NCBI GenBank assembly: GCA_029838215.1
Contig: JALGVI010000070.1
Span: 2,215 to 17,572 of the forward strand
Origin: Candidatus Helarchaeota archaeon
GTDB lineage: Archaea > Asgardarchaeota > Lokiarchaeia > Helarchaeales > RDOG01
Direction: 5' to 3'
Length of the DNA: 15,358 bases
In this document: positions 1 to 14,533 of the stretch, one piece after another
Layout of the letters: every line of letters begins with the position of its first letter
How positions within the stretch are numbered: the stretch's first letter is position 1
The notes under the pieces: generated by a model
What the model saw: only the letters and a program-made list of their open reading frames with translations
The model's database searches: none
What the model was told of the DNA's origin: nothing
Made by a program: the position numbers and the translations under genes

Positions 1-555
1 GTCATTGAGTCTGTCTGTAAGGGATGTGGTGTCTGTGCTGCAGGATGTCCGGCTGATGCAATAACCATCAAGCACTTTACAAATCAACAAATAAATAACA
101 TGATAGATGTTGCGCTGACAAATCCCGCTTTGAAAACAGAACCAAAAATCATCGCATTTTTATGTAATTGGTGCAGCTATGCAGGTGCGGATAATGCAGG
201 AGTAAGTCGATTTCAATATTCTCCATCAGTACGCGTGATTCGGGTAATGTGTTCGGGCCGAATCAACATCTTGCATCTTCTTGAAGCATTTAAAGCTGGT
301 GCAGATGGCGTGATGGTTTTGGGTTGTCATATTGGTGACTGCCATTATATTTCCGGTAACCTGCACGCTCAAAGACGGGTAAATATGGCAAAACGTCTCG
401 TGGAGCTAGCAGGCATTAATCCCGAGCGTTTAAAATTGGAATGGGTAAGTGCTGCTGAAGGTAAAAAATTTGCTCAATTAATTAATGATTTCATCGCTGA
501 ACTTGAAGAAATGAAAAAGAATGAAAACATGTTCCTCATGCACAAACTGAAATAG
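1..555 (+). CDS. hdrA-mvhD: 3' end of an HdrA-MvhD fusion protein, 5'-truncated by the window: last HdrA ferredoxin motif plus a complete MvhD [2Fe-2S] domain
   Basis: Frame 1 is open from base 1, upstream of the ORF-track ATG at 100. It reads VIESVCKGCGVCAAGCPADAITIKHFTNQQINNMID (CxxCxxCxxxCP plus the typical HdrA C-terminal tail), then IIAFLCNWCSYAGAD...RVMCSGR...GCHIGDCHY...WVSAAEG (MvhD). TAG stop at 553-555. Confidence 0.93.
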   Translation, partial: VIESVCKGCGVCAAGCPADAITIKHFTNQQINNMIDVALTNPALKTEPKIIAFLCNWCSYAGADNAGVSRFQYSPSVRVIRVMCSGRINILHLLEAFKAGADGVMVLGCHIGDCHYISGNLHAQRRVNMAKRLVELAGINPERLKLEWVSAAEGKKFAQLINDFIAELEEMKKNENMFLMHKLK

Positions 556-558
556 GTA

Positions 559-3500
559 TTGACCGTGTCTGAAGTCAAGTTAAATGCTGTTCTCATAATT
601 GGTGCGGGAATAGGAGGCATGGATGCCGCCCTTGATTTAGCTGAGGCTGGACATCGCGTGTATCTCGTGGAGAAGACGGCTGCCATTGGAGGAAATTACG
701 CTCGCGTGTATAAGGTATTTCCTCTTGACGAATGTTCTGCTTGTGTCTTAACTCCTAAGATGAATGCCGTGGGAAAGCATCCTAACATCACGCTCTTAAC
801 TCTTTCAACAATTACCAAGATTGAAGGTGTTGCGGGTGATTTTCAAGTAACGATTCATAAGAAGCCGCGTTACGTCGATGAATCTAAATGCACCGGGTGT
901 GGCAGGTGTATTGAAGCATGTCCCGTGGAGGTTCTACATGAATATAACTATGGTTTGAATAAACGCAAGGCCATTTACTTGGATTTTGCCCAACAAATTC
1001 CATTCGTCACGACAATTGATAAAAATAATTGTATTAATTGCAGGATGTGCGAAAAAACCTGTTTGGCAAAAGCCATTAATCATGAAATGGAAGAAGAATT
1101 TCTAAATCTGAATGTTGGTGCCATTATCATTTCTACGGGTTTCGAGGAATTTGATCCCTCTGAAAAATTGCCTCAATTGGGTTATAAGCGTCATAAGAAT
1201 GTCATTACATCAATGATGTATGAGAGAATGACGCATCCTGCTGGTTTAGATAATGTCGTTCGTCCTTCTGATGGAAAGCGCATTAAAAGAGCTGTTTTTG
1301 TAAATTGCATTGGGGCTAGAGACGAACAAATTGGAAATACATATTGCAATAAGGCATGTTGCATGTTTAGCATGAAAAATGCCAGGAATCTTCACCATCA
1401 TGAAGAAGATGCTGAAATCTTCATTTCTTACATTGACATTCGATCGGCTGGAAAGCTCTATGAATTGTATTATCGTTCGACAATGCAAGATTATGGCATT
1501 AAATTCTTGCGAGGAAAGGTTGCAGAAGTACTGGAAGATCCTAAAACGAGAGATTTAACGGTGCGTTTAGAAGACACGGAAACGGCGGAGCCCATGACGA
1601 TAGATGACGTGGATCTGGTTGTTTTAAACTGTTCATTCCGTCCTTCTGAGGGTACATTAGAAATTGCTCGGCTATTGAATTTAGAAACTGAAGATGATGG
1701 CTTTATTAAAGAGTATAAGTTTGAAAATGGTGCCATCTCCACTTCAATTGCAGGGATTTATCTCGCAGGTGCAGCTCATGGTCCCAAAGATGGGTCTGAT
1801 ACAATTGTTGAAGCCAAGGCTGCGGCATCTGCTGCTGCAACACATCTCATCCAACCCGAAGCCCAGCTCGAAGTCACAAAATCCACCGTTTCCGATCCAA
1901 ATTATGTTCCAAAAGTGGGTGTTTTCGTCTGTCATTGTGGAGGAATCATTTCCTCTGTGGTTGATGTTAAAAAAGTCGTCGAAGAAATTAAAAAAGAGCC
2001 AAATGTTTCCTTTATCACCGATTATTTGTTCATGTGTTCAAGTCCTGGTCAAGACCTCATTAGAAACAATGCCAACAAATTCAATCGAGTATTGGTCTGT
2101 TCATGTTCTCCTGCAATTCATGAAAAAACATTCCGTAATTGCGTGGAAGATGTTGGAATGTCACGATTTCACTTCACGGGACCAATGAATATCCGCGAAC
2201 AGTGTGCAATGGTGCATAAAGATGATCATGAAAAAGCAACCGAAAAAGCCATTGAACTCATTCGGGGTGGGATTGCAAGAGTTGCAAGGCTTCAAGCCGT
2301 TCCAATTAGAAAGATTGATTTTGTGAACAGCGTGCTGATAATTGGAGGTGGTGTCGCAGGGTTGAACGCTGCTCTAGACTCTGCAAAAAGAGGGATGAGT
2401 GTTCATTTAATAGAAAAAGAATCGAGATTGGGTGGACGACTCACTCGCCTTTATAAACTCTTCCCTCACGGTGATCTTGCTCAAGACATTTTGAAGAAAC
2501 TATTTGATGATGTTGAAAAAGATCCAAACATAACGATTCACTTGGAGACCGAAATCGAAGAGATGACGGGACACGTTGGAAATTATGTAATAACGCTAAA
2601 TCAAAAAGGCAATCGCAACACGATAAATGTTGGTGGAGTGATTGTTTCAATTGGAACGAAAGCATACACACCTCAATTAGGGGAATACGGGTACGGACAA
2701 CATGAAAGAGTTCTCACTTCGCTTGAATTCGAAGAGAAATTGAGAAATGATGAAGAAATAAATCCTAAAAATGTTATATTCATACAATGTGTTGGATCCC
2801 GAGCGTATCCCGGTGAAGCTGGTAATGTTCACTGTTCTCGTGTTTGTTGTAACGTATCTCTAATAAATGCTGAAGTATTAAAAGAAAAATTTCCGACCTG
2901 TAATGTTCACGTCTTGTACAAGGAACACTTCCGTGCATTTGGAAGATACATGGAAGAAAAGTATAAAGCACTCATGATGCGGGGCGTGACCTTTACAAGG
3001 TTTAAAAAAGATGAAAAACCCGAAGTAATTGTAAACGGGGATAAAATCGAAATCAAATATCACGATTCACTTTTAAATAAATCATTTCACGAAGAGATTG
3101 ATTACCTGATCCTTTCTGTTGGACAAGAAGCCCCTGATGGGATTGAAAAATTATGTGAAGTGCTGGGCATCACGCGTTCGCAAGATGGTTTTGTTGAAGA
3201 AATGCACATAAAATTCCGCCCTGTAGAAACAAAAGTCCCCGGTGTTTTTACGTCAGCAAGCTTCCCAAAGGATGTTGCCGATACGATCAACATGGCGAGG
3301 GGTGCTGCTTCTGGCATTCATCAACTTCAGAAAGGTATTGAATTGGAGATGATCATTGCAGAGGTAAATGAAGATTTGTGTGTTGGATGTGGTTTATGCG
3401 AATCGATTTGTGCGTATGATGCCATTACAATGAAAGAAACTTCGCCCGGCAAATGGATTTCTGTTACTGATGAAATTCAATGCGCGGGATGCGGAACGTG

Positions 3501-3591
3501 TGTTGCTTCCTGCCCTGTCGGTGCGAGAGACCTCCGCTGGTGGCGAGACGAACAATTTCTGGCTCAAATTGAAGCCATATTACGTGAATGA
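559..3591 (+). CDS. hdrA: Tandem (double-flavin) HdrA-family protein, 1010 aa
   Basis: Module 1 (aa ~9-432): GAGIGG..VEK..IGG, FPLDECSAC, inserted ferredoxin CTGCGRCIEACP / CINCRMCEKTC, cluster motif CIGARD..CNKACC, GIYLAGAAHGPKD. Module 2 (aa ~452-1010): N-terminal domain GVFVCHCG..C..CSCSP..NIREQC, GGGVAG..IEK..LGG, CVGSR..CSRVCC, C-terminal ferredoxin CVGCGLCESIC / CAGCGTCVASCP. The start is TTG at 559 or GTG at 565 (AGGT at 554-557 favours 565). Confidence 0.93.
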   Translation: MTVSEVKLNAVLIIGAGIGGMDAALDLAEAGHRVYLVEKTAAIGGNYARVYKVFPLDECSACVLTPKMNAVGKHPNITLLTLSTITKIEGVAGDFQVTIHKKPRYVDESKCTGCGRCIEACPVEVLHEYNYGLNKRKAIYLDFAQQIPFVTTIDKNNCINCRMCEKTCLAKAINHEMEEEFLNLNVGAIIISTGFEEFDPSEKLPQLGYKRHKNVITSMMYERMTHPAGLDNVVRPSDGKRIKRAVFVNCIGARDEQIGNTYCNKACCMFSMKNARNLHHHEEDAEIFISYIDIRSAGKLYELYYRSTMQDYGIKFLRGKVAEVLEDPKTRDLTVRLEDTETAEPMTIDDVDLVVLNCSFRPSEGTLEIARLLNLETEDDGFIKEYKFENGAISTSIAGIYLAGAAHGPKDGSDTIVEAKAAASAAATHLIQPEAQLEVTKSTVSDPNYVPKVGVFVCHCGGIISSVVDVKKVVEEIKKEPNVSFITDYLFMCSSPGQDLIRNNANKFNRVLVCSCSPAIHEKTFRNCVEDVGMSRFHFTGPMNIREQCAMVHKDDHEKATEKAIELIRGGIARVARLQAVPIRKIDFVNSVLIIGGGVAGLNAALDSAKRGMSVHLIEKESRLGGRLTRLYKLFPHGDLAQDILKKLFDDVEKDPNITIHLETEIEEMTGHVGNYVITLNQKGNRNTINVGGVIVSIGTKAYTPQLGEYGYGQHERVLTSLEFEEKLRNDEEINPKNVIFIQCVGSRAYPGEAGNVHCSRVCCNVSLINAEVLKEKFPTCNVHVLYKEHFRAFGRYMEEKYKALMMRGVTFTRFKKDEKPEVIVNGDKIEIKYHDSLLNKSFHEEIDYLILSVGQEAPDGIEKLCEVLGITRSQDGFVEEMHIKFRPVETKVPGVFTSASFPKDVADTINMARGAASGIHQLQKGIELEMIIAEVNEDLCVGCGLCESICAYDAITMKETSPGKWISVTDEIQCAGCGTCVASCPVGARDLRWWRDEQFLAQIEAILRE

Positions 3592-3594
3592 GGA
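3589..3594 (+). promoter_or_regulatory. Stop codon overlapping the Shine-Dalgarno site (TGAGGA) of mvhD
   Basis: TGA 3589-3591 and GAGGA 3590-3594, 6 nt before ATG 3601. Confidence 0.6.
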
Positions 3595-3600
3595 AAAAAA

Positions 3601-4017
3601 ATGCCCCCGAGAAAGCCCGTCATAGTATTGTTTGCTTGCATGCAGTGTAGTTATACGGCACTCGACCTTGCAGGTACCTTGAAAATACAATACGATCCGA
3701 TCGTCCGAGTCGTGCGCTTTCCTTGTACGGGACGAATTGACATCATACATATATTAAAAGCAATTGTAAACGGGGCAGATGCTGTCGTCGTGGCTCCTTG
3801 TCATAAAGGAGATTGTGCTTATAAACTGGGGAATTTGGCTGCTGATAGACGCGTTCGATTCGTGAAACATCTTCTCAAGGAATTGAACATTGATCCGAGA
3901 AGGGTTCAAATTCATTTCGTAAGTGCCGCAGAGGGTGCTAAAATTGCCGAAGTTGTAAACCAAGTCGCAAAAGAAGTTGTTGAAGAAATCGGACCAAGTC
4001 CTTTTCGAAAAAAATGA
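3601..4017 (+). CDS. mvhD: Stand-alone MvhD ([2Fe-2S] hydrogenase delta/Hdr adaptor subunit)
   Basis: FACMQCSY..DLAG....QY....RVVRFPCTGRID....GAD.V....CHKGDCAY..GN...FVSAAEG. GAGGA RBS at 3590-3594. Confidence 0.93.
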   Translation: MPPRKPVIVLFACMQCSYTALDLAGTLKIQYDPIVRVVRFPCTGRIDIIHILKAIVNGADAVVVAPCHKGDCAYKLGNLAADRRVRFVKHLLKELNIDPRRVQIHFVSAAEGAKIAEVVNQVAKEVVEEIGPSPFRKK

Positions 4018-4032
4018 AGAAGGATCGCATTA

Positions 4033-4317
4033 ATGAGTCAAGATAAAAAGGAAGAATTGAATAAAATCATAAAAAAATTGGAAGAAACCAAAGATTCTAA
4101 AAGTTTAGAGTGGAAACGCATCGTTGAAGCCAATAAAGAAGAATTTGAGTCCATAAAATCCGCTATTAAAGAAAAACAGCAAGAATTAAAGACATTGGTA
4201 CAACGAAAAAGAGCTTTACAAATAAATAACGATGAATTTGAAGAAAGAGTCAATAAGATTCAGGATGAATTGACCGAGCTAGAATCAAAAATCCTGACCA
4301 TGAGAATGTCGTTTTGA
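4033..4317 (+). CDS. Hypothetical 94-aa Lys/Glu-rich coiled-coil protein
   Basis: Fills the gap between mvhD and the next hdrA-like gene, on the same strand, with AAGGA ~8 nt before the ATG. It has heptad-like hydrophobic spacing (e.g. FEERVNKIQDELTELESKILTM) and no Cys. Confidence 0.75.
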   Translation: MSQDKKEELNKIIKKLEETKDSKSLEWKRIVEANKEEFESIKSAIKEKQQELKTLVQRKRALQINNDEFEERVNKIQDELTELESKILTMRMSF

Positions 4318-4320
4318 GGA
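4315..4320 (+). promoter_or_regulatory. Stop codon overlapping the Shine-Dalgarno site (TGAGGA) of the hdrA-like half subunit
   Basis: TGA 4315-4317 and GAGGA 4316-4320, before ATG ATG at 4326/4329. Confidence 0.6.
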
Positions 4321-4325
4321 AAAAC

Positions 4326-5615
4326 ATGATGAAAAAAGCGTGCATAATTGGATCCGGGTTAAGTGCTTTGAATGCTGCCGTTGAGTTGGCAGATTCGGGA
4401 ATCGAAGTAACGGTAATAAGCAGGGATCGGTATGCGGGTGAAAATGCCCCCAATTTATATAAGGCATTTCCAACTGATGATTGTTTCTTCTGCGTTTCGG
4501 CAACAAGACTCAAGGATGGCATTCGAAAATGCTTTTATCGTTCCGGGATTTTTGAGCATCCAAATATTAAAATGTATTTTGATTCTAAAGTCGAAAGCAT
4601 CGAAGGGAATGGGCCTTTTCTCATTAAAATGCAGGAGGGTCCCATTTATATCGATCACGAAAAATGCATTCAATGTGGAGCTTGCGAGGAGGCTTGCCCT
4701 AAAACCATTCAGCTGAAGAGAAAGCTACAAATGACTCGTAGAAAAGCAATATATCATCGACTTCAATGTCTTCCATATTCTTACTATATTGATCGCGAAG
4801 CGTGTCCTCCCGATTGTGAAGAATGCATTAAAGCCTGTCCTGTAGAAGGTGTAATTAATCTAAATGCTCCCCCAAAGCATCTTGAACTTGAAGCAAGCGT
4901 CATCATTTTGGCGTTATCCTATAAGGAATTCGATCCCACTAATCTAACTCAATTGCATTATAACACGTATAAAAACGTCATCACGCAGGTTCAACTGGCT
5001 CGCATGCTAGATCCAACGGGTCCAACCGAAGGCAAGATCGTCCGTCGTTCAGATAATCGTCCCGCAAAAAGAATTTTCATGTTACAGTGCGTGGGATCAC
5101 GAGATGTGGAAAACCTACCGTATTGTAGCGAAATTTGTTGTACTTTTGCCTGTAAACATGCGTTAATAATAAAGAATGAGCGAGAACCAGAAACTCAAGT
5201 CTCAATCATTTACAAGGACATCCGGACTCTTGGTTTACAAGAAAAATATTATCGTGAAGCCCGAGATTCTGGAATTGATTTCGTAAAAGGGCATTTATCG
5301 CTCGTCAAGGAGCTTTCTGATGGAACGCTTGAGTTATTAATTTATGATGCCCTGCTAAACAAGTTAGTTCGTTGTCCAGCAGACCTTTTAATACTTTCGG
5401 CAGGATTGATGCCTTCCGAAAATGCTCTTGATTTGTTATCGATTGCGAATATTTCGCTTGATGATTTCAAGTTCACTGTAAAAGATCTCGATCTTGTTGA
5501 GACAAATCGAAAAGGGATTTATGCCATCGGCTCTATCGTGAAACCGCTCTCAATTCCCGAAGCCTCCATCTTGGCAAAGGCGGCTACATTCAAAATATTA
5601 GAGAATTTTACTTGA
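4326..5615 (+). CDS. hdrA: HdrA-like 'half' subunit (flavin-fold domain plus inserted 2x[4Fe-4S] ferredoxin) with a degenerate FAD-binding site; QmoA-sized
   Basis: GSGLSA..AA, YKAFPTDDCFFC, CIQCGACEEACP, CPPDCEECIKACP, CVGSRD..CSEICC, DIRTLG, GIYAIG. It has no N-terminal cluster domain and no C-terminal ferredoxin. The ORF track starts at TTG 4314, but GAGGA at 4316-4320 favours ATG 4326 or 4329. Confidence 0.85.
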   Translation: MMKKACIIGSGLSALNAAVELADSGIEVTVISRDRYAGENAPNLYKAFPTDDCFFCVSATRLKDGIRKCFYRSGIFEHPNIKMYFDSKVESIEGNGPFLIKMQEGPIYIDHEKCIQCGACEEACPKTIQLKRKLQMTRRKAIYHRLQCLPYSYYIDREACPPDCEECIKACPVEGVINLNAPPKHLELEASVIILALSYKEFDPTNLTQLHYNTYKNVITQVQLARMLDPTGPTEGKIVRRSDNRPAKRIFMLQCVGSRDVENLPYCSEICCTFACKHALIIKNEREPETQVSIIYKDIRTLGLQEKYYREARDSGIDFVKGHLSLVKELSDGTLELLIYDALLNKLVRCPADLLILSAGLMPSENALDLLSIANISLDDFKFTVKDLDLVETNRKGIYAIGSIVKPLSIPEASILAKAATFKILENFT

Positions 5616-5618
5616 GGA
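5613..5618 (+). promoter_or_regulatory. Stop codon overlapping the Shine-Dalgarno site (TGAGGA) of the 696-aa hdrA-mvhD
   Basis: TGA 5613-5615 and GAGGA 5614-5618, 7 nt before ATG 5626. Confidence 0.6.
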
Positions 5619-5625
5619 TTCATCC

Positions 5626-7716
5626 ATGCCCGAGAAAAAAGTCAAAATATTTACTTGCACGTGTGGCAAGACGCTCATGTCTGCTTTGGATTTTTCGAGA
5701 ATCCAAATTGAGTTACGAGATCAAGGGCTAGATGTAGAAATTAAGGATGTGTTATGCGATGAGCCGGGAATGGAATTACTGGCAGGGAGTCTTCAGGAAG
5801 GATTTGATCGTTTTATATTAGCAGCCTGCACGCCTCAGAAAATCGAGATGAAACTCCAGAATTATTTAAGGTCAAAAAGACTCGATCCGCACTCTTTTGA
5901 TGTAGTCAACATTCGAGAACAGTGCGCTTGGGTACATGATGACATTAATTCGGCAACAAATAAGGTGATTGCTCTAGTTAAAGCCTCATTTAGAAAGGAA
6001 CAGATCGCCTCTGCAATTGATCGAAAAGAATTCAACCTTTCAAAGGAAATTATCGTGATTGGTGGTGGAATTGCTGGTCTTCAAGCAGCCATTGATCTTA
6101 GTTCTTTAGGTTTCAACACGAAAATTTTAGAAAAAAGCTCTGAGGTTGGTGGACAGGTAAAAAATATCTCCAGAACCTTTCCTACTGGAAGGGTTGGGAA
6201 AGAAATCATCTCGGAAAAAATCAAGCTCATCCAAGAAAGAAACATACAAATCATGACTGATTGCAAGATAAATTGGATTTCTGGCCATCTAGGCAATTTC
6301 CAAATTAATTGCATGAAAGATGGGAAAGAAACGACACTTGAGTGTGCAGCTCTCGTGATAGCTACTGGTCACGAAGTATATCGTCCGTTTGACATGAAAC
6401 AATATAAATATGCTGAGATTCCTGGCATAATGACTTTGGACGAATTATCTAACAAGCTGGCTGATGAAGACTACTGCACCGATGAATTGAAAAGTCCTTT
6501 AACGGGCAAACCTGTAAGAAACTTATTCTTCATTCAATGTATCGGAAGCAGGGACACGTCGAGATTTAATTATTGTAGCGAATATTGTTGCATGTCTGCG
6601 ATTAATCATGCAATTGAACTTAAAGAAGCAATGCCTGATTTGGATGTAAAAATTAGTTATTTTGATATTAGAACACCGTATGAAGAAGAACTGAAATACA
6701 CGCAAGCGAGAAGTCTCGGAATCGATTTTATCCGTGGAAGGGTTGGTTCCGTAGAAGCACGAGATCACTCCTTGACAGTATCTGTTTTTGATACACATCT
6801 GGGGAAGCATTTTAAACTTCCTGCGGATATGATTGTTCTTTCTACACCCCTTTGCCCCGTTTCTGACAATAATAACCTATTCCAAATGCTTAACTTGAAT
6901 TTTACGAGTGATGGATTTCTCAAGGATTATTATTCTAAGCTCAGACAAGTTGAAACAAATCGTAAGGGAATTTTTATTTGTGGAACTGTCAGCGGTCCAA
7001 AGACAATTTCGAAATCCGTCGCCGAAGCACATGCTGTTGCGCTCAGGGTCAATCAACTCTTTCAAGATGGTCGTTTCGAAAAGGATCTGACCATAACTAA
7101 AATTGATCTTGAAACCTGTAATGGGTGCGGTTTATGCGTGCGAGTGTGTCCCTTTAACATTCCTGTCCTGATCGAGGAAGATGAAGAAAAAGCCTACGCA
7201 ATGATTGACGAATTACAATGTAAAGGTTGCGGTATATGTGCAAGCCTCTGTCCGACAGGTGCCGCTCAGCTTCAATCCTATCAACGTGATCAAATTCTAA
7301 TTCAAATCGAAGAACTTTTGAGCGATGCAAGCCCTAACAACCCTCTAATTATTGGATTTGTTTGTGATGAATGCGCATATGCTACTGTCGATTCCGTGGG
7401 AATTTTGCGGAAGAAATATCCGACAAATATCCGTTTGATTCGCTTACCCTGTTTGGGACGACTTTCTCTCCTTGATATCTTTAAAGCGTATGAAGAGGGT
7501 GCAGGTGGTGTCTTGCTACTTGGTTGTGCCGAAGATAGATGCCATTATTTAGAAGGAAACACAAAAATCGGGTATGAAGTTGAAATTGCTAAAGAAATTT
7601 TCAAGGCAATTGGACTGGATCCCGACACTCTCGAATACATACCCCTATTTTCTGCAGAACCCGATAAATTTCTCGAAGCCGTGAATAGAATGGCAATGAA
7701 GTTAAAATCCGTGTGA
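5626..7716 (+). CDS. hdrA-mvhD: HdrA-MvhD fusion (N-terminal cluster domain + FAD domain + C-terminal ferredoxin + MvhD); QmoB-like architecture
   Basis: CTCG..C..AACTP..NIREQCAWVH, GGGIAG..LEK..VGG, CIGSRD..CSEYCC, CNGCGLCVRVCP / CKGCGICASLCP, then MvhD from ~7342 (IIGFVCDECAY..PCLGR..GCAEDRCHYLEGN). It lacks the post-TFP CxxC and the inserted ferredoxin. Confidence 0.92.
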   Translation: MPEKKVKIFTCTCGKTLMSALDFSRIQIELRDQGLDVEIKDVLCDEPGMELLAGSLQEGFDRFILAACTPQKIEMKLQNYLRSKRLDPHSFDVVNIREQCAWVHDDINSATNKVIALVKASFRKEQIASAIDRKEFNLSKEIIVIGGGIAGLQAAIDLSSLGFNTKILEKSSEVGGQVKNISRTFPTGRVGKEIISEKIKLIQERNIQIMTDCKINWISGHLGNFQINCMKDGKETTLECAALVIATGHEVYRPFDMKQYKYAEIPGIMTLDELSNKLADEDYCTDELKSPLTGKPVRNLFFIQCIGSRDTSRFNYCSEYCCMSAINHAIELKEAMPDLDVKISYFDIRTPYEEELKYTQARSLGIDFIRGRVGSVEARDHSLTVSVFDTHLGKHFKLPADMIVLSTPLCPVSDNNNLFQMLNLNFTSDGFLKDYYSKLRQVETNRKGIFICGTVSGPKTISKSVAEAHAVALRVNQLFQDGRFEKDLTITKIDLETCNGCGLCVRVCPFNIPVLIEEDEEKAYAMIDELQCKGCGICASLCPTGAAQLQSYQRDQILIQIEELLSDASPNNPLIIGFVCDECAYATVDSVGILRKKYPTNIRLIRLPCLGRLSLLDIFKAYEEGAGGVLLLGCAEDRCHYLEGNTKIGYEVEIAKEIFKAIGLDPDTLEYIPLFSAEPDKFLEAVNRMAMKLKSV

Positions 7717-7720
7717 GGAG
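7714..7720 (+). promoter_or_regulatory. Stop codon overlapping the Shine-Dalgarno site (TGAGGAG) of the 738-aa gene
   Basis: TGA 7714-7716 and GAGGAG 7715-7720, 9 nt before ATG 7730. Confidence 0.6.
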
Positions 7721-7729
7721 CAATTATCA

Positions 7730-9946
7730 ATGTTTGAATCCGAATCCCTGGAAATTCCCAAGAAGAGAAAAATCCTATACGATTTTATCTGGAAAATGAT
7801 TGAAATTCAGAAGGCAAAGGAAGTTTCCATGGCAATTTCGGATCAGGACTTGGTAGTTAAAGAATTAAATCTTTTATATTCAAAATTTGAAGATTTTGAC
7901 AATAAAATATTGAATAAATTTCAAGATTTAGCCGAAGAAAAGCTTAACGTGGCTGCACTAAAACGTTTTTTGGAAAAAATGACACCTCTTGCAACTACAA
8001 TTCCTGAAGAAGTTTCTTTATTGAATTCTGTAAGTATAATTCTAAAAGAAAAACATCAACCTCTTGAATCTGACGTGCAGAAGCCCGGTCTTTCCCAAGA
8101 TTCAAATCAAATCATCACGCGCTTACAAAAGATTGGTGGAATTTTATCTAATCTCGAAATTGATCTTGGTCGAATATCAAGCATTCAAGAAAAGCAAAGG
8201 AAAGAAATCTTGGAAGAAAATGAAGCTAAATTAGTTGAATTAAAAAGAATTAGTACTAAATTCAAGCAACTGGAATCCCAACAAGACGTAAATGCGCTTT
8301 TTAACATGCTTCAGGAAAGCAGTCGCCAGTTACGTTATCAACCGCTTTTGTATTCAATTAGTCAAATATCGCGATCCTATAAAGATGGGCGCATCTCTGC
8401 AGAAAAAGCACGAAACCTCTTCGACCTTGTCTTATATCAAAAATTCACCGAAGCACTCGTATTCAATGTTCTTCTTTTAATTGAGAAGGCATCTCCTGGA
8501 GAAATCGCAACCCTAGTGGGAATTGAAACCGATAGAGTCTTTCAAGCCCTTCTGACTCTTATTGACGATGGGAAAATAGAAGGCCGCATGGAAGATTCCA
8601 CCTATTTTCCAATAAAAAAGGAAATTCTTCTCCAAAAATCTATATCAAATTTAAAAAAGGCACTCACTTACTTAATTAAAACTTCATCAAACGAAATTGT
8701 GTCAATAATCGATGAAATAATTCGAAAAATTGATGACATTGACAAAATTTTATTGAAAATCCGCGATCTTGATGAAACACCTTTCCAAACCTCCTTACAA
8801 GAGATTAATGAAATGGTGTCATTCATTAACTTGGATCTTGGAGGAGCGTCTTCTTCCGAAAATATCATTAAATCTCGTTTAGATGGGATGATTGAAGCAA
8901 TAAAACTGGGTCGTCTTTACAAGATAATAGAAAAAGAGCAAATTTTGATTGAAGAAGAGAAAGTTCCCGAGAATCTGGTCGAAAGGATTACCGATGCTTC
9001 CATCATTACAGATTACAAGCGCGGCTTGATATTAAGTACTTTACGTACTAAAGGTGCTCTTTCTCTCCCAGAGTTAACAAATATTACGGGATTACCGTCG
9101 AATGAATTATTCATTGAGCTCCAAGACCTAAAAAATGCCGACTTGATAACCATTGTTGGCGAACGTGAAGGCTATCATCTTTTTGACATTCCCCGCATCC
9201 TGACGCCAGATGAACTATTCGTAGATGACTTCATTGAAAAAAGAATGAATGCGTATGATCTCATTTTAAATTTGGAAGAACAAGGAAAAAATATCGAGAG
9301 AAACTTTCATTCGATAAAAAACACTTTAACCTCTTTACGAATACTGGTTAAATCATTCGATTCTCTTTCATTTGATGGGCTTGAGTTCGGAAATCTATTT
9401 GCTGAATCTTTTCTGAACGTCATTTCGGAAGTTCAAGAAACATTTTCAAAAATTAAGACTACTGTTAAGGTTGGAAAGATAGAAATCGATTTTGATAAAC
9501 TCGTCCCCATTCCAATTCCACAAACTGAGGATGAGTTCGCACATCTTATCGAGCCAACAGAATTAATGGGCTTCGGGACTATCGAATGCAATGAAAGTTT
9601 ATGTCTTACGTGTGGAAAGTGTGAGTCCGTATGCCCTGAAGGGGCTGCAATCTTGAAACAGGAATGGAATATTCCTCTCTTTTTCAAGCTTACTGATGAA
9701 GAATTAAAAGCATTACCTGAAAATAGACGAATGTTAATTCAATCCTTGAGAAATATTGCGAAAAAAACGCCAGAACGCCCGATTCTGATTCCTCGTAATG
9801 CAAAGGGTTATGGGCGTGCAACTTTTAATCCCATGAAATGCATTGCGTGTAAGGAATGCGTCGATAAATGTCCAATAGAAGCGATCACGTTTGAAGAAAT
9901 ATGGAATTTTCCTGAAGTCTTGAAAGGAATCTTAAAATTGACGTAA
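7730..9946 (+). CDS. Unrecognised 738-aa protein: helical/coiled-coil regions, two putative winged-helix domains and a C-terminal 2x[4Fe-4S] ferredoxin domain
   Basis: Long ORF with GAGGAG RBS at 7715-7720. CLTCGKCESVCP at 9602-9637 and CIACKECVDKCP at 9839-9874. HTH-like segments at ~8447-8611 (SPGEIATLVGIETDRVFQALLTLIDDGKIEG) and ~9002-9187 (LSLPELTNITGLPSNELFIELQDLKNADLI). The CDS is confident; the wHTH calls are by eye. Confidence 0.85.
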   Translation: MFESESLEIPKKRKILYDFIWKMIEIQKAKEVSMAISDQDLVVKELNLLYSKFEDFDNKILNKFQDLAEEKLNVAALKRFLEKMTPLATTIPEEVSLLNSVSIILKEKHQPLESDVQKPGLSQDSNQIITRLQKIGGILSNLEIDLGRISSIQEKQRKEILEENEAKLVELKRISTKFKQLESQQDVNALFNMLQESSRQLRYQPLLYSISQISRSYKDGRISAEKARNLFDLVLYQKFTEALVFNVLLLIEKASPGEIATLVGIETDRVFQALLTLIDDGKIEGRMEDSTYFPIKKEILLQKSISNLKKALTYLIKTSSNEIVSIIDEIIRKIDDIDKILLKIRDLDETPFQTSLQEINEMVSFINLDLGGASSSENIIKSRLDGMIEAIKLGRLYKIIEKEQILIEEEKVPENLVERITDASIITDYKRGLILSTLRTKGALSLPELTNITGLPSNELFIELQDLKNADLITIVGEREGYHLFDIPRILTPDELFVDDFIEKRMNAYDLILNLEEQGKNIERNFHSIKNTLTSLRILVKSFDSLSFDGLEFGNLFAESFLNVISEVQETFSKIKTTVKVGKIEIDFDKLVPIPIPQTEDEFAHLIEPTELMGFGTIECNESLCLTCGKCESVCPEGAAILKQEWNIPLFFKLTDEELKALPENRRMLIQSLRNIAKKTPERPILIPRNAKGYGRATFNPMKCIACKECVDKCPIEAITFEEIWNFPEVLKGILKLT

Positions 9947-9958
9947 TTGGTGATGAAA

Positions 9959-10507
9959 ATGAATGAATTTAATACAACTCCGGAATTTACCGAGTGCTTG
10001 ACTGAAGAAGATTTAGATCCGAATTTCAAGCACGAAATTGCGGCAATGCCTGATGGAAAAACCATCCTTGCCTGTTATCAATGTGGTACCTGCTCTTCAA
10101 GTTGTCCAATAACGTGTGTTGCCGAATTTGCACCCAGTCAAATCATTCGAATGGCTCTACTCGGCTTAAAGAAACCACTTTTAGAGTCTGAAGCAATAAA
10201 CTCCGTTTGGCTTTGTGCTACTTGCGGGACTTGTATTGAGAGATGTCCTCAAGGCGTAGAAGTCACTAACGTGCTTCATGCCATTAAAAACTACATCTTC
10301 AAGACATTACAGAAAATTCCAAAAGGACTCAAGGTTGTTTCCGAGACCATTGTAGAACTAGGACGATCCATCGAGATATCTGACTTTCAAGAAGATGAGC
10401 GAGACGATCTTGACCTACCTGCAGTTCCCGAAGCTGATGTCGAAAGTGTTAGAACCATATTAAAAGATACTGAGATAGGAAAGAGATTCATGGAAAAGGA
10501 GGAATGA
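9959..10507 (+). CDS. hdrC: Heterodisulfide reductase subunit C (2x[4Fe-4S])
   Basis: CYQCGTCSSSCP..P..IIRMA.LG....VWLCATCGTCIERCPQGV. The ORF track starts at TTG 9947, but GGTGA at 9949-9953 favours ATG 9959. Confidence 0.95.
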   Translation: MNEFNTTPEFTECLTEEDLDPNFKHEIAAMPDGKTILACYQCGTCSSSCPITCVAEFAPSQIIRMALLGLKKPLLESEAINSVWLCATCGTCIERCPQGVEVTNVLHAIKNYIFKTLQKIPKGLKVVSETIVELGRSIEISDFQEDERDDLDLPAVPEADVESVRTILKDTEIGKRFMEKEE

Positions 10508-10510
10508 TGT

Positions 10511-11392
10511 ATGGATTATGCTTATTTTTTGGGATGTACCGTTCCTGCAAGGACCAATCAATACGATGCAGCTACCCGGAAAGTCGCCGAAAAACTAGGA
10601 ATTGGATTAAATGACATTGAAGGTGCTAGCTGTTGCGGTTTAAATTTCAAGTATCTTGATCGTAAAGCATGGCTTCTGATGGCTGCTAGAAACATCGTGC
10701 TTGCAGAACGAATGAACATGAACATCATGACCTTATGTAATGGATGCTACGAAACATTGAAGGAAGTGAATCACGAGCTTAAGTTACACGATTCTCTACG
10801 CCAAGACATGAACAAGACATTACAAAAAGTGGGTTTGGAATTTCAAGGAACCATCGAGATCCTCCATCTGGTTGACGTTCTTGCCGGGCTGGACAAAGAA
10901 CTTATCCGTTCCAAGTTCTCAATTCCTTTAAAAGGTTTGAAAGTAGCCGTTCATTATGGATGTCACCTATTAAAGCCATCTAGAATAATTCAATTCGACG
11001 ACCCCGAGAATCCTCATGTCCTAGACGACCTCGTGGAGCTTACAGGTGCAAAAGCTGTTGCGTGGGATGATAAACTCACCTGTTGTGGTGGACCTCTTCT
11101 TTCCGTGAATGAAGACCTATCCGTCCGACTGGCTCTCGATAAGTTTAAAGGTGCCCATTCCGCCGGAGCCGACATCCTGCTAAGCGTTTGTCCTTTTTGC
11201 ACGATTCAATTTGATCTCATTCAATTAAAAGTCCAAGAGAAATATAATTTGGATTTCGAAATACCCGTGATCTTCTTGCCTCAACTTTATGGGCTTGCAA
11301 TGGGAATGGACCCTGACGAATTAGGTGTTGAGCTACATCGGATTCCACTGGAGGATGTTATCGAATCGATTCAGGAAGCTACTACCGAATAG
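10511..11392 (+). CDS. hdrB: Heterodisulfide reductase subunit B (two CCG domains)
   Basis: YFLGC..SCCG..LCNGCY and VAVHYGCH..TCCGG..VCPFC: both five-Cys CCG domains are complete. C-terminal PV..LPQL.GLAMG tail. GGAGGA RBS at 10498-10503. Confidence 0.96.
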   Translation: MDYAYFLGCTVPARTNQYDAATRKVAEKLGIGLNDIEGASCCGLNFKYLDRKAWLLMAARNIVLAERMNMNIMTLCNGCYETLKEVNHELKLHDSLRQDMNKTLQKVGLEFQGTIEILHLVDVLAGLDKELIRSKFSIPLKGLKVAVHYGCHLLKPSRIIQFDDPENPHVLDDLVELTGAKAVAWDDKLTCCGGPLLSVNEDLSVRLALDKFKGAHSAGADILLSVCPFCTIQFDLIQLKVQEKYNLDFEIPVIFLPQLYGLAMGMDPDELGVELHRIPLEDVIESIQEATTE

Positions 11393-11406: not shown

Positions 11407-12573
11407 CTATATTTTTCCTAATGTTGACTCGTAGAGTTGCCGTTCTTCTTTTATGGCTTTGTTTTGGATTTCTAAACGAATACTACATTCCTTTGCTTCA
11501 ATAACTTGCTTGTAAAATTTCTCTTCCAAGTCTTGCAATTTCTCTGTTACTTGCCTCGTGGATTTAGACAAGGCCATTTCATGTTGCCACCATAATTTGT
11601 TTGACTCCTGCCTTGCTGAAGCCGAAAAAAATTCTGCCAACTCCGTTGTCTCAAATACGAACGGTTTAAAGAAGCTTGCACAAGGATGCGGCGTTCCTGT
11701 AAACCAATGAACATGACACGGATCTTCTGCTTTAATGAGAGAAACTTGAGATGCAGTCGATCGAAAGCCGCCGTGCATGCAAATTCCTGCTTCGTGGTCT
11801 CTTAATATGGACATCATGGTTTTAGGCGTGATTTTGCCAAATCCTGTCTTTAAAAGATGATATCCACGACCTTCTCGACAGAACTGGCTGTCATAGTCAG
11901 CCACTTCCCCTGATGCGAAGCACTTTGCAAAGTTGAAATCCGAATCATCCCTACAATAACCCTTTTCAACGGCATATTCCACGATGCCATCTGCTTTTCG
12001 GTCGAACTGAGTCTCAATGGACACGGCATTGGAAATATTACGCACGCCATCCCTAACCCGCTCGGCTACCCACCATTTATCGGCCGTTTCCAAGATCCAT
12101 GCTTCTCTAGCATCTGCAATTAGAAAGGAATTATGATACGTGAAAGAAGAATCACCCTCGGAGCAACCGCCACCTTGCCCGTGAGCTTCTAATAATGAAA
12201 CAATTACTTCCAGTGCCTTCTCTGCTGTTTCTCCACGCTCAAGTCCTAATCGAAGGAGATCCATGCCCAAAAGTGCTGTTGGACCATCCGGTTCTCTCGT
12301 CCAAATGGCCTCATTTCCAATCACGACACCTTTTTCATTTGCTCCCATTTCGCCACCAAACATCCATGCCGGTTGTGATAAAAAAATGGCAAGAGTCTTG
12401 CTTGCTTGGGGGATTTCAATATAGGTACATTTAACGGTTGCGTCTCGTGAATACTCCCTTGATGGATAATATTGAATGTTTTGAACTTCGTTATAAGGTC
12501 GGTCGCTATTCTTCCCAAATACCGTGGCACCATCGGGGGTTGCAGATCCCAAAGCCACGAAAGTATCGCACAA
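11407..12573 (-). CDS. Secernin-like C69-family Ntn-hydrolase (dipeptidase-like)
   Basis: TTG start followed by CDTFVA (N-terminal nucleophile Cys), GKNSDRP, CTYIEIPQ, EMGANE.GV.IGNEA, LLGMDL.RLGLER, GQGG.C, YHNSFLIAD, FTGTP.P..S.FKPF. AGGAG RBS at 12583-12587 (minus strand). Confidence 0.9.
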   Translation of the reverse strand: MCDTFVALGSATPDGATVFGKNSDRPYNEVQNIQYYPSREYSRDATVKCTYIEIPQASKTLAIFLSQPAWMFGGEMGANEKGVVIGNEAIWTREPDGPTALLGMDLLRLGLERGETAEKALEVIVSLLEAHGQGGGCSEGDSSFTYHNSFLIADAREAWILETADKWWVAERVRDGVRNISNAVSIETQFDRKADGIVEYAVEKGYCRDDSDFNFAKCFASGEVADYDSQFCREGRGYHLLKTGFGKITPKTMMSILRDHEAGICMHGGFRSTASQVSLIKAEDPCHVHWFTGTPHPCASFFKPFVFETTELAEFFSASARQESNKLWWQHEMALSKSTRQVTEKLQDLEEKFYKQVIEAKECSIRLEIQNKAIKEERQLYESTLGKI

Positions 12574-12623
12574 AATATCAAGCTCCTTTGAAAAAAATTC
12601 TTCTTCTTACTTGAATAATCGCT

Positions 12624-12649
12624 AAAAAAGAATTTATTATAACTTTTGA
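12624..12649. promoter_or_regulatory. Candidate bidirectional archaeal promoter (BRE-TATA) between the divergent C69 hydrolase and amidohydrolase genes
   Basis: TTTATTATAA at 12633-12642 is preceded by a purine tract on each strand (AAAAAAGAA on +, TCAAAAG on -), inside a 112-bp AT-rich divergent spacer. Confidence 0.4.
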
Positions 12650-12685
12650 TGAAGTAATACAAATAAATTTAATGAGTCGAGATTT

Positions 12686-13546
12686 ATGAGAATTGACTTC
12701 CATTGCCACGTGTTTCGCGTTTTGAATTCCAGAGAAGCCATCCAAAAACAATTCGACGGGTTTCAAGGATACGGATTTTACGAACGAATGCTTTTAACGA
12801 TTAAAAACGTGAAATCAATTAAAACCAATGACGTGATTGAAAAAACGCTTTTTCACGTGAAGAAAGCCGGAATCGATAAAGTTGTTCTACTCCCACTGAG
12901 CATCAAGGAGAATGACGTGGTTAAAAACTGGTACAAAGCCGCACCCGAGGTATTCATTCCGTTTTTCAATCCTCCTGAGAAGATTAACGGCGATCAGAGT
13001 CCTGAGACGATAATTGAAAAGGCTCTTAAGGAAGACGAATATCGCGGATTAAAAATCATGCTACCATTCCGCAAGAAGCATTTGAACGATAAAATCTTAT
13101 ATCCTGCACTTGAAATGGCTCAACAACATGATGTCCCCGTCGTGATGCATGCTGGTTATCCGCCTCCAGGCACGAAAAAACAGGTCTTGACTTATTCGAA
13201 TCCCATCAAGATCGTGGATTTCATTGATTCTTTTCCCAAGTTAAACTTGGTTATCGCGCACATGGGCTTTCCATGGGTCGATGTTGCTATTTCCTTAGCC
13301 ATGCAATATCAAAGTGTTTATTTGGATGTCAGTAACTTGACTTACATGATGCCGAGACGTCTAAAGGATTTTCTAATGAGAGCACGCGAGATAATTGGAC
13401 TTGATAAGATCTTATTCGGGTCAGACACGTTTGTTCCCGAAATGATTGAAGTTACTGCACGGTATTTTAATGATGTAAGTTTTTTATCAAGAGAAGAAGT
13501 TAAAAAAATATTAGGTTTAAATGCTAAAAGACTTCTCCATTTGTGA
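12686..13546 (+). CDS. Amidohydrolase_2-family metal-dependent TIM-barrel hydrolase/decarboxylase; substrate unknown
   Basis: N-terminal IDFHCH (HxH), VVMHAG, LVIAHMG.PW, VYLDVS, KILFGSD and C-terminal ILG.NA.RL motifs. Confidence 0.88.
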   Translation: MRIDFHCHVFRVLNSREAIQKQFDGFQGYGFYERMLLTIKNVKSIKTNDVIEKTLFHVKKAGIDKVVLLPLSIKENDVVKNWYKAAPEVFIPFFNPPEKINGDQSPETIIEKALKEDEYRGLKIMLPFRKKHLNDKILYPALEMAQQHDVPVVMHAGYPPPGTKKQVLTYSNPIKIVDFIDSFPKLNLVIAHMGFPWVDVAISLAMQYQSVYLDVSNLTYMMPRRLKDFLMRAREIIGLDKILFGSDTFVPEMIEVTARYFNDVSFLSREEVKKILGLNAKRLLHL

Positions 13547-13560
13547 TTTCGGCGAATTAA

Positions 13561-14460
13561 TCAATCATGCATTTTTTTAAATTTCAGGTGAATGAAACGA
13601 ATTAAATTTTTATCAGGATTAAAAAAGGGATTGGACAAGACTTTTTCTTTCAAATCTGGATGAGACAGGATCTTGGAATGAAATGGAAATTCTTCAACGA
13701 CTTCAATGCAATCGTTATATTTTTTCAAGTCCATTACTTTTTCTACGTGCCAATGCATTTCCATGTCAAATTGCGAGCCCAACTCTTTCGACTTTCTCAC
13801 GTTTTCATTGATTAACTGCGCTCCCTTTTCCGTCACAGCATCAAAAAGTAAAGCGCCTCCAAAAAATCTTGCCGGGAGCCATTGAAATAATTCCATCATT
13901 TGTTTTTCCGTGAAATAATGGAAAACTCCTGCAGCAAATAAAAAAACGCCGTTTGTCGCATCATGTTCTACGGATTCGGTCCAAGTCTCATCAAAGATCG
14001 ACCCTGCAATTGTTTTGGATCGCTTGGTTTCGGAAATGAATTTTTTTCGGAACTCTATTGCATCTGGCAAATCCAAGTCATACCAGTAAATTTGTCCATT
14101 ATCGACTTTGGAGAAAGTCGTGTCAAGACCAGCACCAAGATTTATGATCGTAGAATTAGGGTGTTTTGAGATGTATTCGCGAAGCACGGTTTCGATGCTT
14201 TTGATTCGAGCGACACAACCAATACGCGTGGTTTCGTCGTATAATTTAGAAATTAGCTCGAATTCCACGTCTAATTTCTTGACGATATTTTCGGCAAACA
14301 GGTCTTTATAAATGTAATCTTCGTCATGACTGACTAATGCTCTTCCAAACATGGAAAAAAGGATATTCTTTTCCAATTCAGAAAAATGAAAAGATTTCTT
14401 TTGGTTTTTCACCAATTTCTTTAGTTCTTCATTCCCTATTCCATCGATCAAATTTGACAT
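13561..14460 (-). CDS. Class I SAM-dependent methyltransferase, LCM/TcmP-like (O-methyltransferase) family
   Basis: R......D..A....., IINLGAGLDT, WYDLDLPD.IE.R, GSIFD..W, AAGVFHYF and LLFD motifs. GGGAGG RBS at 14467-14472 (minus strand). Confidence 0.87.
   Translation of the reverse strand: MSNLIDGIGNEELKKLVKNQKKSFHFSELEKNILFSMFGRALVSHDEDYIYKDLFAENIVKKLDVEFELISKLYDETTRIGCVARIKSIETVLREYISKHPNSTIINLGAGLDTTFSKVDNGQIYWYDLDLPDAIEFRKKFISETKRSKTIAGSIFDETWTESVEHDATNGVFLFAAGVFHYFTEKQMMELFQWLPARFFGGALLFDAVTEKGAQLINENVRKSKELGSQFDMEMHWHVEKVMDLKKYNDCIEVVEEFPFHSKILSHPDLKEKVLSNPFFNPDKNLIRFIHLKFKKMHD
13572..13578 (+). terminator. Possible archaeal oligo-T terminator for the amidohydrolase gene
   Basis: T7 run 25 nt after the TGA at 13544-13546, lying within the 3' end of the convergent methyltransferase gene, where it also encodes KK. 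Confidence 0.25.
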
Positions 14461-14533
14461 AAACCGCCTCCCTTTTAAGTCATCTACTGGAATTACTGAA
14501 TAAATAGAAGAAATTCGTGAGATAATAATCTTT

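Follow-up and report, generated by a model that had tools for sequence, protein, structure and literature searches.

How is an electron-bifurcating heterodisulfide reductase (Hdr) system organized when a single operon encodes several HdrA-derived flavin modules and three MvhD domains for only one HdrBC pair? This question is raised by a stretch of 15,358 nucleotides (nt), referred to here as the window, from Candidatus Helarchaeota archaeon (positions 2215-17572 of contig C10, JALGVI010000070.1, in a metagenome-assembled genome (MAG) of 3.6 Mb which is 94% complete). An earlier note on the letters of this DNA had described positions 1-11392 as an expanded Hdr supercluster and had suggested that it encodes a much larger, asymmetric, multi-input and undescribed electron-routing complex. 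As judged from gene and domain content, positions 1-11392 probably represent a polycistronic operon for a soluble, flavin-based electron-bifurcating or confurcating system of the Hdr/MvhD type, built from asymmetric parts.

These positions are filled by nine open reading frames (g1 to g9), all co-oriented on the + strand and located as listed in the earlier note. The spacers from g1 to g9 are, in order, 3, 9, 15, -4, 10, 13, 0 and 3 nt, so that the 3-15 bp given before were close, the actual range being -4 to 15 nt. Shine-Dalgarno-like sequences (GAGG or GGAGG) lie directly 5' of the start codon in several spacers, and no transmembrane segment was found in any of the operon proteins.

MAFFT was used to align all HdrA-type modules and, from the same genome, two canonical HdrAs. 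On analysis of this alignment, it was found that the operon holds six such FAD modules, two each in g1 and g2 and one each in g5 and g6, and that they belong to two complementary types. Type A (the first half of g1, residues 1-445 of g2, and g5) has the FAD domain, a cysteine pair equivalent to Cys194/Cys197 and the inserted 2x[4Fe-4S] ferredoxin, and is devoid of the N-terminal domain and of the C-terminal ferredoxin. Type B (the second half of g1, residues 446-1010 of g2, and g6) has the N-terminal CxCG...C...C Fe-S domain, the FAD domain and the C-terminal 2x[4Fe-4S] ferredoxin, which is restricted to this type, and is devoid of Cys197 and of the inserted ferredoxin. No HdrA module of the operon holds all four canonical domains. 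The cysteine pair of the A modules occurs as DECSAC, DDCFFC or NDCSIC, and the GxGxxG and C(V/I)G...C..CC cluster motifs as well as Pyr_redox/FAD matches are present in all six modules. The asymmetry proposed before is thus borne out; of the count of at least five modules, the exact figure is six, as g1 contributes two from beyond the window.

The fused HdrA g2 (559..3591, + strand, 1010 aa), a predicted pseudo-dimer recognized by phmmer against HdrA in the PDB, by a structure model and by the cysteine alignment, matches the HdrA2 model at 941 bits in three stretches. Its residues 11-430 correspond to HdrA 146-565 (thioredoxin reductase (TrxR)-FAD domain with the inserted ferredoxin), residues 451-607 to HdrA 4-161 (N-terminal Fe-S domain) and residues 846-1009 to HdrA 485-651 (end of the TrxR domain and C-terminal ferredoxin), and the second FAD domain falls about 85 residues short of the length needed for an inserted ferredoxin. 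The cysteine pair of module A (~1-445) is Cys59/Cys62. All cluster cysteines and this pair are invariant in 17 fused homologues, and the pair is absent from the second halves. The AlphaFold model of the single g2 chain is compact (predicted local distance difference test score (pLDDT) 84, predicted template modelling score 0.84). Residues 5-432 of the model superpose on HdrA 148-574 with a Z-score of 31.4 and a root-mean-square deviation of 1.6 Å over 424 aligned residues, and residues 449-1010 superpose on HdrA 2-652 with a Z-score of 31.2 and a deviation of 4.1 Å over 554 aligned residues.

The two module types are also encoded as separate proteins, by g5 and g6. The free-standing module A, g5 (4314..5615, +, 433 aa), aligns to positions 137-554 only of the HdrA2 model (310 bits), carries the pair as DDCFFC and also has the TrxR-domain cluster motif; its true start is probably not the TTG at 4314 but an ATG that lies a few codons further downstream. 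Module B in g6 (5626..7716, +, 696 aa; 535 bits) is followed by an MvhD domain at residues 575-695, which was recognized by FlpD (3.8e-34) and by PDB chain 9sw2_D (E 1.4e-22). In phmmer searches against the PDB, residues 1-231 of g6 matched 8rvu_a 9-244 and residues 232-568 matched 321-656; as the second match resumes at HdrA 321, the inserted ferredoxin (245-320) is exactly deleted. In one family of the order (L023, L024, L025) the g6 orthologue is 788-791 aa in length, approximately 90 aa longer.

Only the 3' end of g1 lies in the window (1..555, +, open at its 5' side), where it encodes the last [4Fe-4S] motif of a C-terminal ferredoxin and a fused MvhD (FlpD E 2.5e-54, residues 50-171). 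Upstream, the gene continues for 2214 nt until the contig ends, giving at least 922 aa, and its orthologues comprise 1139-1183 aa. With the upstream part of the contig included (L007:1-2769), the HdrA2 model is matched at 848 bits in three stretches and followed by FlpD; the whole of g1 is a two-FAD HdrA fused to MvhD in the order A-B-MvhD, in agreement with the fusion that the earlier note had placed off the window. In a JGI contig (L017:1-2406) the g1 orthologue was called in two parts that lie in different frames, a 944-aa protein and a ferredoxin-MvhD fragment of 230 aa.

By their sequences, the six modules make up three ancient, paralogous and predicted pseudo-dimers of the composition A-B-MvhD, which occur in three states of fusion: in unit 1 all parts are joined in g1 (~1145 aa in orthologues), in unit 2 the fused modules are accompanied by a separate MvhD (g2+g3, 1010+138 aa), and in unit 3 module A is separate and module B is joined to MvhD (g5+g6, 433+696 aa). 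Judged in the same way, each A-B pair would correspond to a single HdrA dimer of which one half is functional, accompanied by one MvhD. As the six modules form three obligate complementary pairs, the operon encodes HdrA units, MvhD and HdrBC in the ratio 3:3:1; the apparent excess of HdrA over HdrBC emphasized before is therefore smaller than it seems. Judged by its motifs alone, the full set is predicted to bind about 6 FAD, 27 [4Fe-4S] clusters (two of them non-cubane) and 3 [2Fe-2S] clusters in about 530 kDa of protein.

The three units are 30-37% identical to one another, and the orthologues of each are 50-62% identical. In a tree of the B modules, made by a quick method with SH-aLRT support only and a midpoint root, unit 3 falls in a deep clade with a paralogue from contig C92 of the same genome, unit 2 forms a clade of its own and unit 1 is sister to a MetFV-linked HdrA of the same genome. 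The identities and the separate clades indicate that all three units predate the order and have been retained since. The idea that the modules arose by tandem duplication in recent times, or that they are pseudogenes in decay, was rejected, considering the 30-37% identity, the presence of orthologues everywhere and the intact motifs.

The remaining redox components were recognized as expected by the earlier note, which had listed MvhD three times and hdrC and hdrB once each; Pfam and NCBIfam agree. Apart from the MvhD domains of g1 and g6, the third is the free-standing g3 (3601..4017, +, 138 aa; FlpD E 5e-42, VhuD model 148 bits), the [2Fe-2S] connector of unit 2. HdrC is encoded by g8 (9947..10507, +, 186 aa; TIGR03290) with two [4Fe-4S] motifs, Cys43/46/49/53 and Cys90/93/96/100, and HdrB by g9 (10511..11392, +, 293 aa; TIGR03288). 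In the latter the CCG domain is found twice (E 7e-28) and both CCG motifs are intact, their ten cysteines being C9, C41C42, C76xxC79 and C151, C191C192, C227xxC230; by this signature, the double CCG is a disulfide-reducing site.

To what extent is this arrangement conserved? LW55_61, another Candidatus Helarchaeota MAG (L008), has all nine genes in unchanged order, with identities for g1 to g9 of 55, 62, 66, 51, 55, 50, 33, 55 and 56% (g1 being compared with a 1145-aa orthologue); orthologues are generally 50-66% identical, with the exception of g7. The order recurs in GCA_054384095.1, in GCA_005191425.1, in one ENA contig and in three JGI contigs, and GCA_014729825.1 holds a partial copy. Among five further species representatives of the order, four (G002-G005) have the nine-gene order, and the fifth (G001) has g1, g2, g3, g5 and g6 in order, with no g4 listed in the stretch examined; with this reservation on g4, the loci of identical order are L008, L010, L011, L015, L017 and L021-L025. 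The search for the gene order in other genomes, which the earlier note had called for, thus finds it recurring, under the same reservation, in all six other species representatives of Helarchaeales. In all five relatives whose upstream flank was examined, g1 is the first gene, and unrelated or divergent genes follow upstream after an AT-rich gap of 290-770 nt.

A few peculiarities of individual loci may be mentioned. In LW55_61 the region upstream of the operon (L008:1066-5973) contains a further co-oriented Hdr set, consisting of a DsrE-like gene (142 aa), HdrC, HdrB and a 1014-aa fused A-B HdrA, separated from the operon by a 570-nt gap, and five other species show no counterpart of it. The only break of the nine-gene order that was observed is a VapB/PIN (VapC) pair. 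A match to a Ruminococcus locus (38% over a stretch of ferredoxin) was dismissed as irrelevant.

The free MvhD itself varies within the order. In the g3 orthologues of two other families, an in-frame TGA for selenocysteine (Sec) occurs where g3 has a cysteine, and translations of L015:5524-5910 and L011:5711-6115 with TGA read as U align GUHPGDC with PCHKGDC of g3; the Cys form is found in the window genome and in LW55_61. Gene callers had split the Sec form into pieces of 57 aa and 38-49 aa. Sec in MvhD and HdrA of Asgard archaea has already been described (PMC9723677, PMC11227280). Several canonical HdrA genes of the window genome are split by apparent in-frame stops as well, and these are probably also Sec codons.

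The earlier note had pointed to two unknown proteins as possible structural partners. For one of them, g7 (7730..9946, +, 738 aa), this holds only in part, as a clear 2x[4Fe-4S] ferredoxin domain is found at its end. Pfam detects only Fer4 in g7 (residues 612-720, with matches at 612-639 and 698-720) together with weak TrmB/HTH_9 hints. The domain, at approximately 610-725, contains two CxxCxxCxxxC motifs about 65 residues apart, Cys625/628/631/635 and Cys704/707/710/714, which are invariant in 11 homologues and account for most of the 9 cysteines of the protein. The best PDB sequence match of residues 590-738 is the MvhB polyferredoxin (4e-10), followed by HycF, FwdF and NuoI. In the structure model (pLDDT 75), the first ~600 residues form long helices, coiled coils and two winged-helix domains (~224-296 and ~414-488), both acidic with a pI of 4.6 and resembling winged helices of the MarR/TrmB/TFE type in fold searches. 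Foldseek with the g7 model against the PDB gave nothing at E <= 0.001 and only weak multi-winged-helix proteins (RPC62/82, PCI, UFL1), and a wide fold search (VIA) gave single winged-helix domains and generic helical bundles at Z <= 11.7, which is below the noise level for helical bundles. Similarly, an ESM Atlas feature search with residues 1-600 yielded no usable match, and a word-index homologue search retrieved g7 itself only.

Full-length homologues of g7 number about 12 among 1.84 billion representatives in an exhaustive HMMER search. They are present in all seven genomes of Helarchaeales, covering three families, and in none of 154 genomes of other Lokiarchaeia, and the orthologues are only 24-33% identical. 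We propose on the basis of these features that g7 is an electron connector and a scaffold. The winged helices could also suggest a redox-sensing transcription factor whose DNA-binding domains, under control of the Fe-S clusters, regulate the operon, in line with the predicted MarR/TrmB/TFE-like folds and the weak Pfam hints. This is very unlikely, as the acidity of both winged-helix domains argues against it, the Fe-S part is a 2x[4Fe-4S] domain of the usual electron-transfer kind with MvhB, HycF and NuoI as its nearest relatives, and the gene lies in the middle of the operon with a spacer of 13 nt before it and 0 nt after it. Furthermore, paralogous loci keep only the ferredoxin domain at the same position, and one variant carries an NfnB-like flavoprotein module.

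The second protein, g4 (4033..4317, +, 94 aa), is Cys-free, all-helical and without known family, NCBIfam giving no match and Pfam only spurious coiled-coil matches. Nineteen residues are invariant among 8 orthologues. Among 5.8 billion proteins, 32 clusters belong to its family; they are annotated 'hypothetical' without exception and labelled nearly throughout as Helarchaeota, Lokiarchaeota or Promethearchaeota; two clusters stand under other labels. One orthologue is labelled 'Candidatus Deferrimicrobium sp.' at NCBI and is probably a mislabelled or mis-binned Helarchaeales record. In the window genome g4 is present as a single copy, and wherever it was found, it lies between g3 and g5. Both odd proteins are thus lineage-specific companions of the operon, as had been supposed. 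A complex prediction for g7 with g4 gave a score of 0.00, which weighs neither way.

Variant loci provide clues about which genes belong together. A JGI contig (3300042731) contains HdrB followed by g5-like, g6-like and g7-like genes and then an acyl-CoA dehydrogenase gene. In another locus (L013:571-4774), the tail of a B-MvhD gene precedes a 972-aa protein, in which an NfnB/GltD-like NAD(P)H flavoprotein module stands ahead of a region matching g7 430-738 (31%, E 4e-40), and again an acyl-CoA dehydrogenase gene follows. Contig C92 of the window genome encodes a module A (435 aa), a B-MvhD protein (715 aa), a 152-aa ferredoxin resembling the C-terminal part of g7, HdrC and HdrB. The JGI variants and the C92 paralogue point to unit 3, g7 (or its ferredoxin) and HdrBC as a self-sufficient core, and the variant loci point to the g7 family as an electron-input or -output adaptor of HdrA of the B-MvhD type. 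The association of g7-like genes with acyl-CoA dehydrogenase in two independent loci hints at a link of this adaptor family to acyl-CoA oxidation or NAD(P)H. A small ferredoxin resembling the g7 C-terminus was also seen on a short contig, with an MvhD fragment directly upstream.

How such parts might operate can be considered in the light of the structural model of the methanogen complex, in which HdrA's N- and C-terminal domains, MvhD and the donor make up a mobile arm that supplies the partner protomer's FAD, and in which MvhB docks onto HdrA's inserted ferredoxin (PMC12350162). Modules A and B of each unit would pack like the two protomers of the canonical HdrA dimer. The B module would be the only mobile arm of the unit, and the A module would provide the FAD served by this arm and the only low-potential exit; each unit would therefore be one single-track bifurcation or confurcation site. 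HdrBC would catalyse the high-potential half-reaction between disulfide and thiols. The ferredoxin domain of g7 may act as a built-in wire to or from the arm or the inserted ferredoxin, like MvhB and FwdF, with its winged-helix/coiled-coil body as a scaffold for docking. The direction in an alkane oxidiser would most plausibly be the reverse one, so that HS-CoM, HS-CoB and reduced ferredoxin would be oxidised and an acceptor of intermediate potential reduced. From the gene content we infer, at somewhat less than an even chance, that the products form one modular assembly with unit 3, g7 and HdrBC as its core and with units 1 and 2 as additional flavin/Fe-S branches. That the disulfide is CoM-S-S-CoB, and that the system works in the confurcating direction to regenerate the heterodisulfide during alkane oxidation, is a tentative suggestion which likewise falls a little short of being evenly balanced.

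Several observations weigh against this assignment. A donor or acceptor enzyme is not encoded in the operon: genes for hydrogenase, formate dehydrogenase (Fdh), FrhB or electron-transfer flavoprotein (ETF) donors were found neither in the window nor upstream of g1 in five relatives, and the multi-input reading of the earlier note finds no support in them. The units could act separately, since a single HdrBC is present for three of them and, elsewhere in the genome, close paralogues of units 1 and 2 come with an HdrBC and a partner of their own, such as MetFV on C164. In GCA_005191425.1 (L011:12913-13573) and in L012, the VapBC pair and some 1.6 kb of additional DNA lie between g7 and hdrC, so that g7 need not be strictly co-translated with HdrCB. 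The NCBIfam equivalog cut-offs are not reached by HdrA2 (941 against 1100 bits), HdrB (316.9 against 345.15) or HdrC (102 against 160), because of which a substrate other than CoM-S-S-CoB is conceivable. Besides those of the operon, the genome has about 8-9 HdrBC pairs and about 13 HdrA units that could serve methyl-coenzyme M reductase (MCR), and the co-occurrence of the operon with MCR is a single phylogenetic event which proves no link.

Two further ways of reading the operon as a whole differ in how the units are coupled. All nine products might be held in fixed stoichiometry in a supercomplex of ~0.53 MDa, or a multimer of it, in which three HdrA-MvhD units are connected to the one HdrBC, with g7 and g4 as structural glue. 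The tight coupling of nine genes, the conservation of their order across three families despite only 24-33% identity in g7, the retention of all three units in every species and the two non-catalytic, lineage-specific proteins embedded in the operon are in favour of such a complex, and megadalton Hdr super-assemblies are reported from methanogens (PMC12350162). The existence of reduced g5-g6-g7-hdrB sets without units 1 and 2 and of other members of the unit 1/2 clade with their own HdrBC makes it rather unlikely. A stronger version, in which the nine products form one supercomplex exclusive to Helarchaeales whose three non-equivalent, single-track bifurcating flavin sites are connected in series or in parallel through the MvhD arms and g7 to the one HdrBC, appears decidedly unlikely. 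If it were true, the complex would be a multi-stage confurcation device with which an alkane-oxidising Asgard archaeon merges, in one particle, electrons of several potentials from thiols, ferredoxin, beta-oxidation or NAD(P)H/F420, and g7 and g4 would be the first of a novel class of proteins that organise redox complexes by winged helices and coiled coils.

Conversely, the operon might encode co-regulated separate enzymes, in which unit 3 with g7 and HdrBC is complete and units 1 and 2, along with g3 and g4, are either HdrA-MvhD flavoproteins in their own right, relying on HdrBC pairs or partners encoded elsewhere, or alternative isoforms that exchange on the single HdrBC. The reduced g5-g6-g7-hdrB locus fits this possibility, as do the extra DsrE-HdrC-HdrB-fused-HdrA set just upstream of the operon in LW55_61 and the excess of HdrA paralogues over HdrBC in the genome, as in ANME-1 (PMC9012536). 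The closest paralogue of unit 1, moreover, is the MetFV-linked HdrA-MvhD of contig C164, which is ~50% identical to the g1 orthologue. Full separation seems doubtful nevertheless, as g1-g4 stand directly ahead of g5-g9 in 7 of 7 species (g4 being unlisted in G001), which is unexpected for unrelated enzymes at such an evolutionary distance, and the 15-nt and overlapping junctions around g4 leave no room for a promoter.

The nature of the disulfide has to be weighed separately, since with HdrA, HdrB and HdrC all below the equivalog cut-offs an unrelated disulfide is equally possible. The disulfide handled by g8 and g9 may be protein-bound, DsrC- or lipoate-like, or a low-molecular-weight thiol, and the operon may serve general redox balancing, for example of electrons from beta-oxidation. 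Besides the sub-threshold scores of HdrB and HdrC, the many HdrBC pairs of the genome, the DsrE-like gene heading the neighbouring Hdr set of LW55_61 and the acyl-CoA dehydrogenase genes after the g7-like gene in two variant loci are compatible with this alternative, which we regard as a substantial possibility at clearly less than an even chance. Against it, the nearest NCBIfam model of HdrB is the CoB-CoM HdrB (317 bits versus 192 for the next family), and MCR-like genes are found in every operon-bearing genome. All six other genomes of the order have MCR alpha; in the window genome, contig C27 (60566-62228) carries MCR gamma and MCR alpha_N. A search of this genome with PF02249 (MCR_alpha C-terminal) returned nothing, a false negative given the two matches on C27; by its sequence, the C27 alpha subunit is a divergent, alkyl-CoM-reductase-like subunit missed by a single-domain search. 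MCR in Helarchaeales fits the published biology of Helarchaeota (PMC6478937), and the MCR-like genes of the window genome make CoM-S-S-CoB no more than a plausible substrate.

The genome is rich in Hdr genes. At least ten other Hdr loci are present (C2, C12, C39, C62, C92, C110, C135, C144, C146, C164), and the genome holds roughly nine HdrA units of the A/B type and seven canonical ones, about 13 of them lying outside the operon, where ~8-9 HdrBC pairs are also found. On C164 an acetogen-type HdrA-MvhD (1160 aa) is followed by HdrC, HdrB, MetV and MetF; FrhB-like genes adjoin the Hdr loci on C39, C110 and C135, and one gene resembling a [NiFe] large subunit occurs in the genome, on C49. Thus several other Hdr loci have a recognisable partner gene, while the only partner candidates in the C10 operon are g7 and g4. 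The HdrA expansion of this genome is comparable to that described for ANME-1.

With respect to known systems, the operon shares its protein families and cofactor motifs, and probably its bifurcation logic, with the methanogen HdrABC associated with MvhAGD, FdhAB-MvhD or ElpABC (5ODC/5ODH, 7BKB, 8RVU/8RVY). It differs in that the methanogen HdrA is a symmetric homodimer whereas the domains here are split over two complementary modules, and in having three HdrA units per HdrBC, two extra lineage-specific proteins and no donor gene within. Tandem or fused HdrAs with complementary N-terminal domain and Cys197 were proposed by Chadwick et al. 2022 (PMC9012536) to form heterodimers that break the two-fold symmetry, and asymmetric HdrA is known from Moorella and from anaerobic methanotrophic archaea (ANME; HdrA3/4, 5/6, 12/13). 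The ANME proteins follow the same complementarity rule, occur in tandem and fused forms and exceed HdrBC in copy number, as in the operon genome. The order of fusion is different, the Cys197 module coming first in the operon and the module with the N-terminal domain coming first in ANME HdrA3/4 according to the text of PMC9012536, not to ANME sequences. Compared with ANME, the operon brings together three units in three fusion states along with g7 and g4, and its host is an Asgard archaeon and not a member of Halobacteriota. Similarly, the MetFV-HdrABC-MvhD complex of Moorella thermoacetica has in common with the operon a two-FAD fused HdrA and MvhD, whereas MetF and MetV are neither in nor beside the nine-gene operon, which has two further HdrA units, g7 and g4. 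As for MvhB and FwdF, these polyferredoxins wire the inserted ferredoxin of HdrA to Fwd/Fmd in the supercomplexes of methanogens; the C-terminal domain of g7 likewise occurs in an Hdr operon and matches MvhB best, but it is one dicluster domain, compared with 6-12 clusters, and is preceded by ~600 residues of coiled coil and two winged helices.

The claim of an undescribed system therefore has to be divided: the families and the principle of asymmetry are published (PMC9012536), and the triple arrangement of non-equivalent asymmetric units per HdrBC, the A-then-B fusion, g7 and g4 were not found in the papers searched. Hdr-type bifurcation is the central energy coupling of methanogens and reverse methanogens. 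For heterodisulfide recycling or electron disposal in MCR-bearing, alkane-oxidising Asgard archaea, where the description of Helarchaeota could only list 'hdrABC' and speculate (PMC6478937), the operon offers a concrete candidate that spans the order. The three stages of fusion or fission side by side can be seen as a natural experiment on asymmetric HdrA, and g4 and g7 are supplied as two uncharacterised partner proteins. For an imbalance of HdrA and HdrBC in a genome, the A/B pair and not the FAD module should be the unit of counting.

Downstream of the operon, the remainder of the window (11407-15358) encodes a C69/Ntn-hydrolase-like protein (388 aa, - strand), an Amidohydro_2 protein (286 aa, +), a LCM-type S-adenosylmethionine-dependent methyltransferase (299 aa, -) and, as the last gene, a short-chain dehydrogenase on the - strand that runs off the window. 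These neighbours are not kept beside the operon in relatives, several of which instead carry genes for sulfatase, adenosine 5'-phosphosulfate (APS) kinase and ATP sulfurylase downstream of it.

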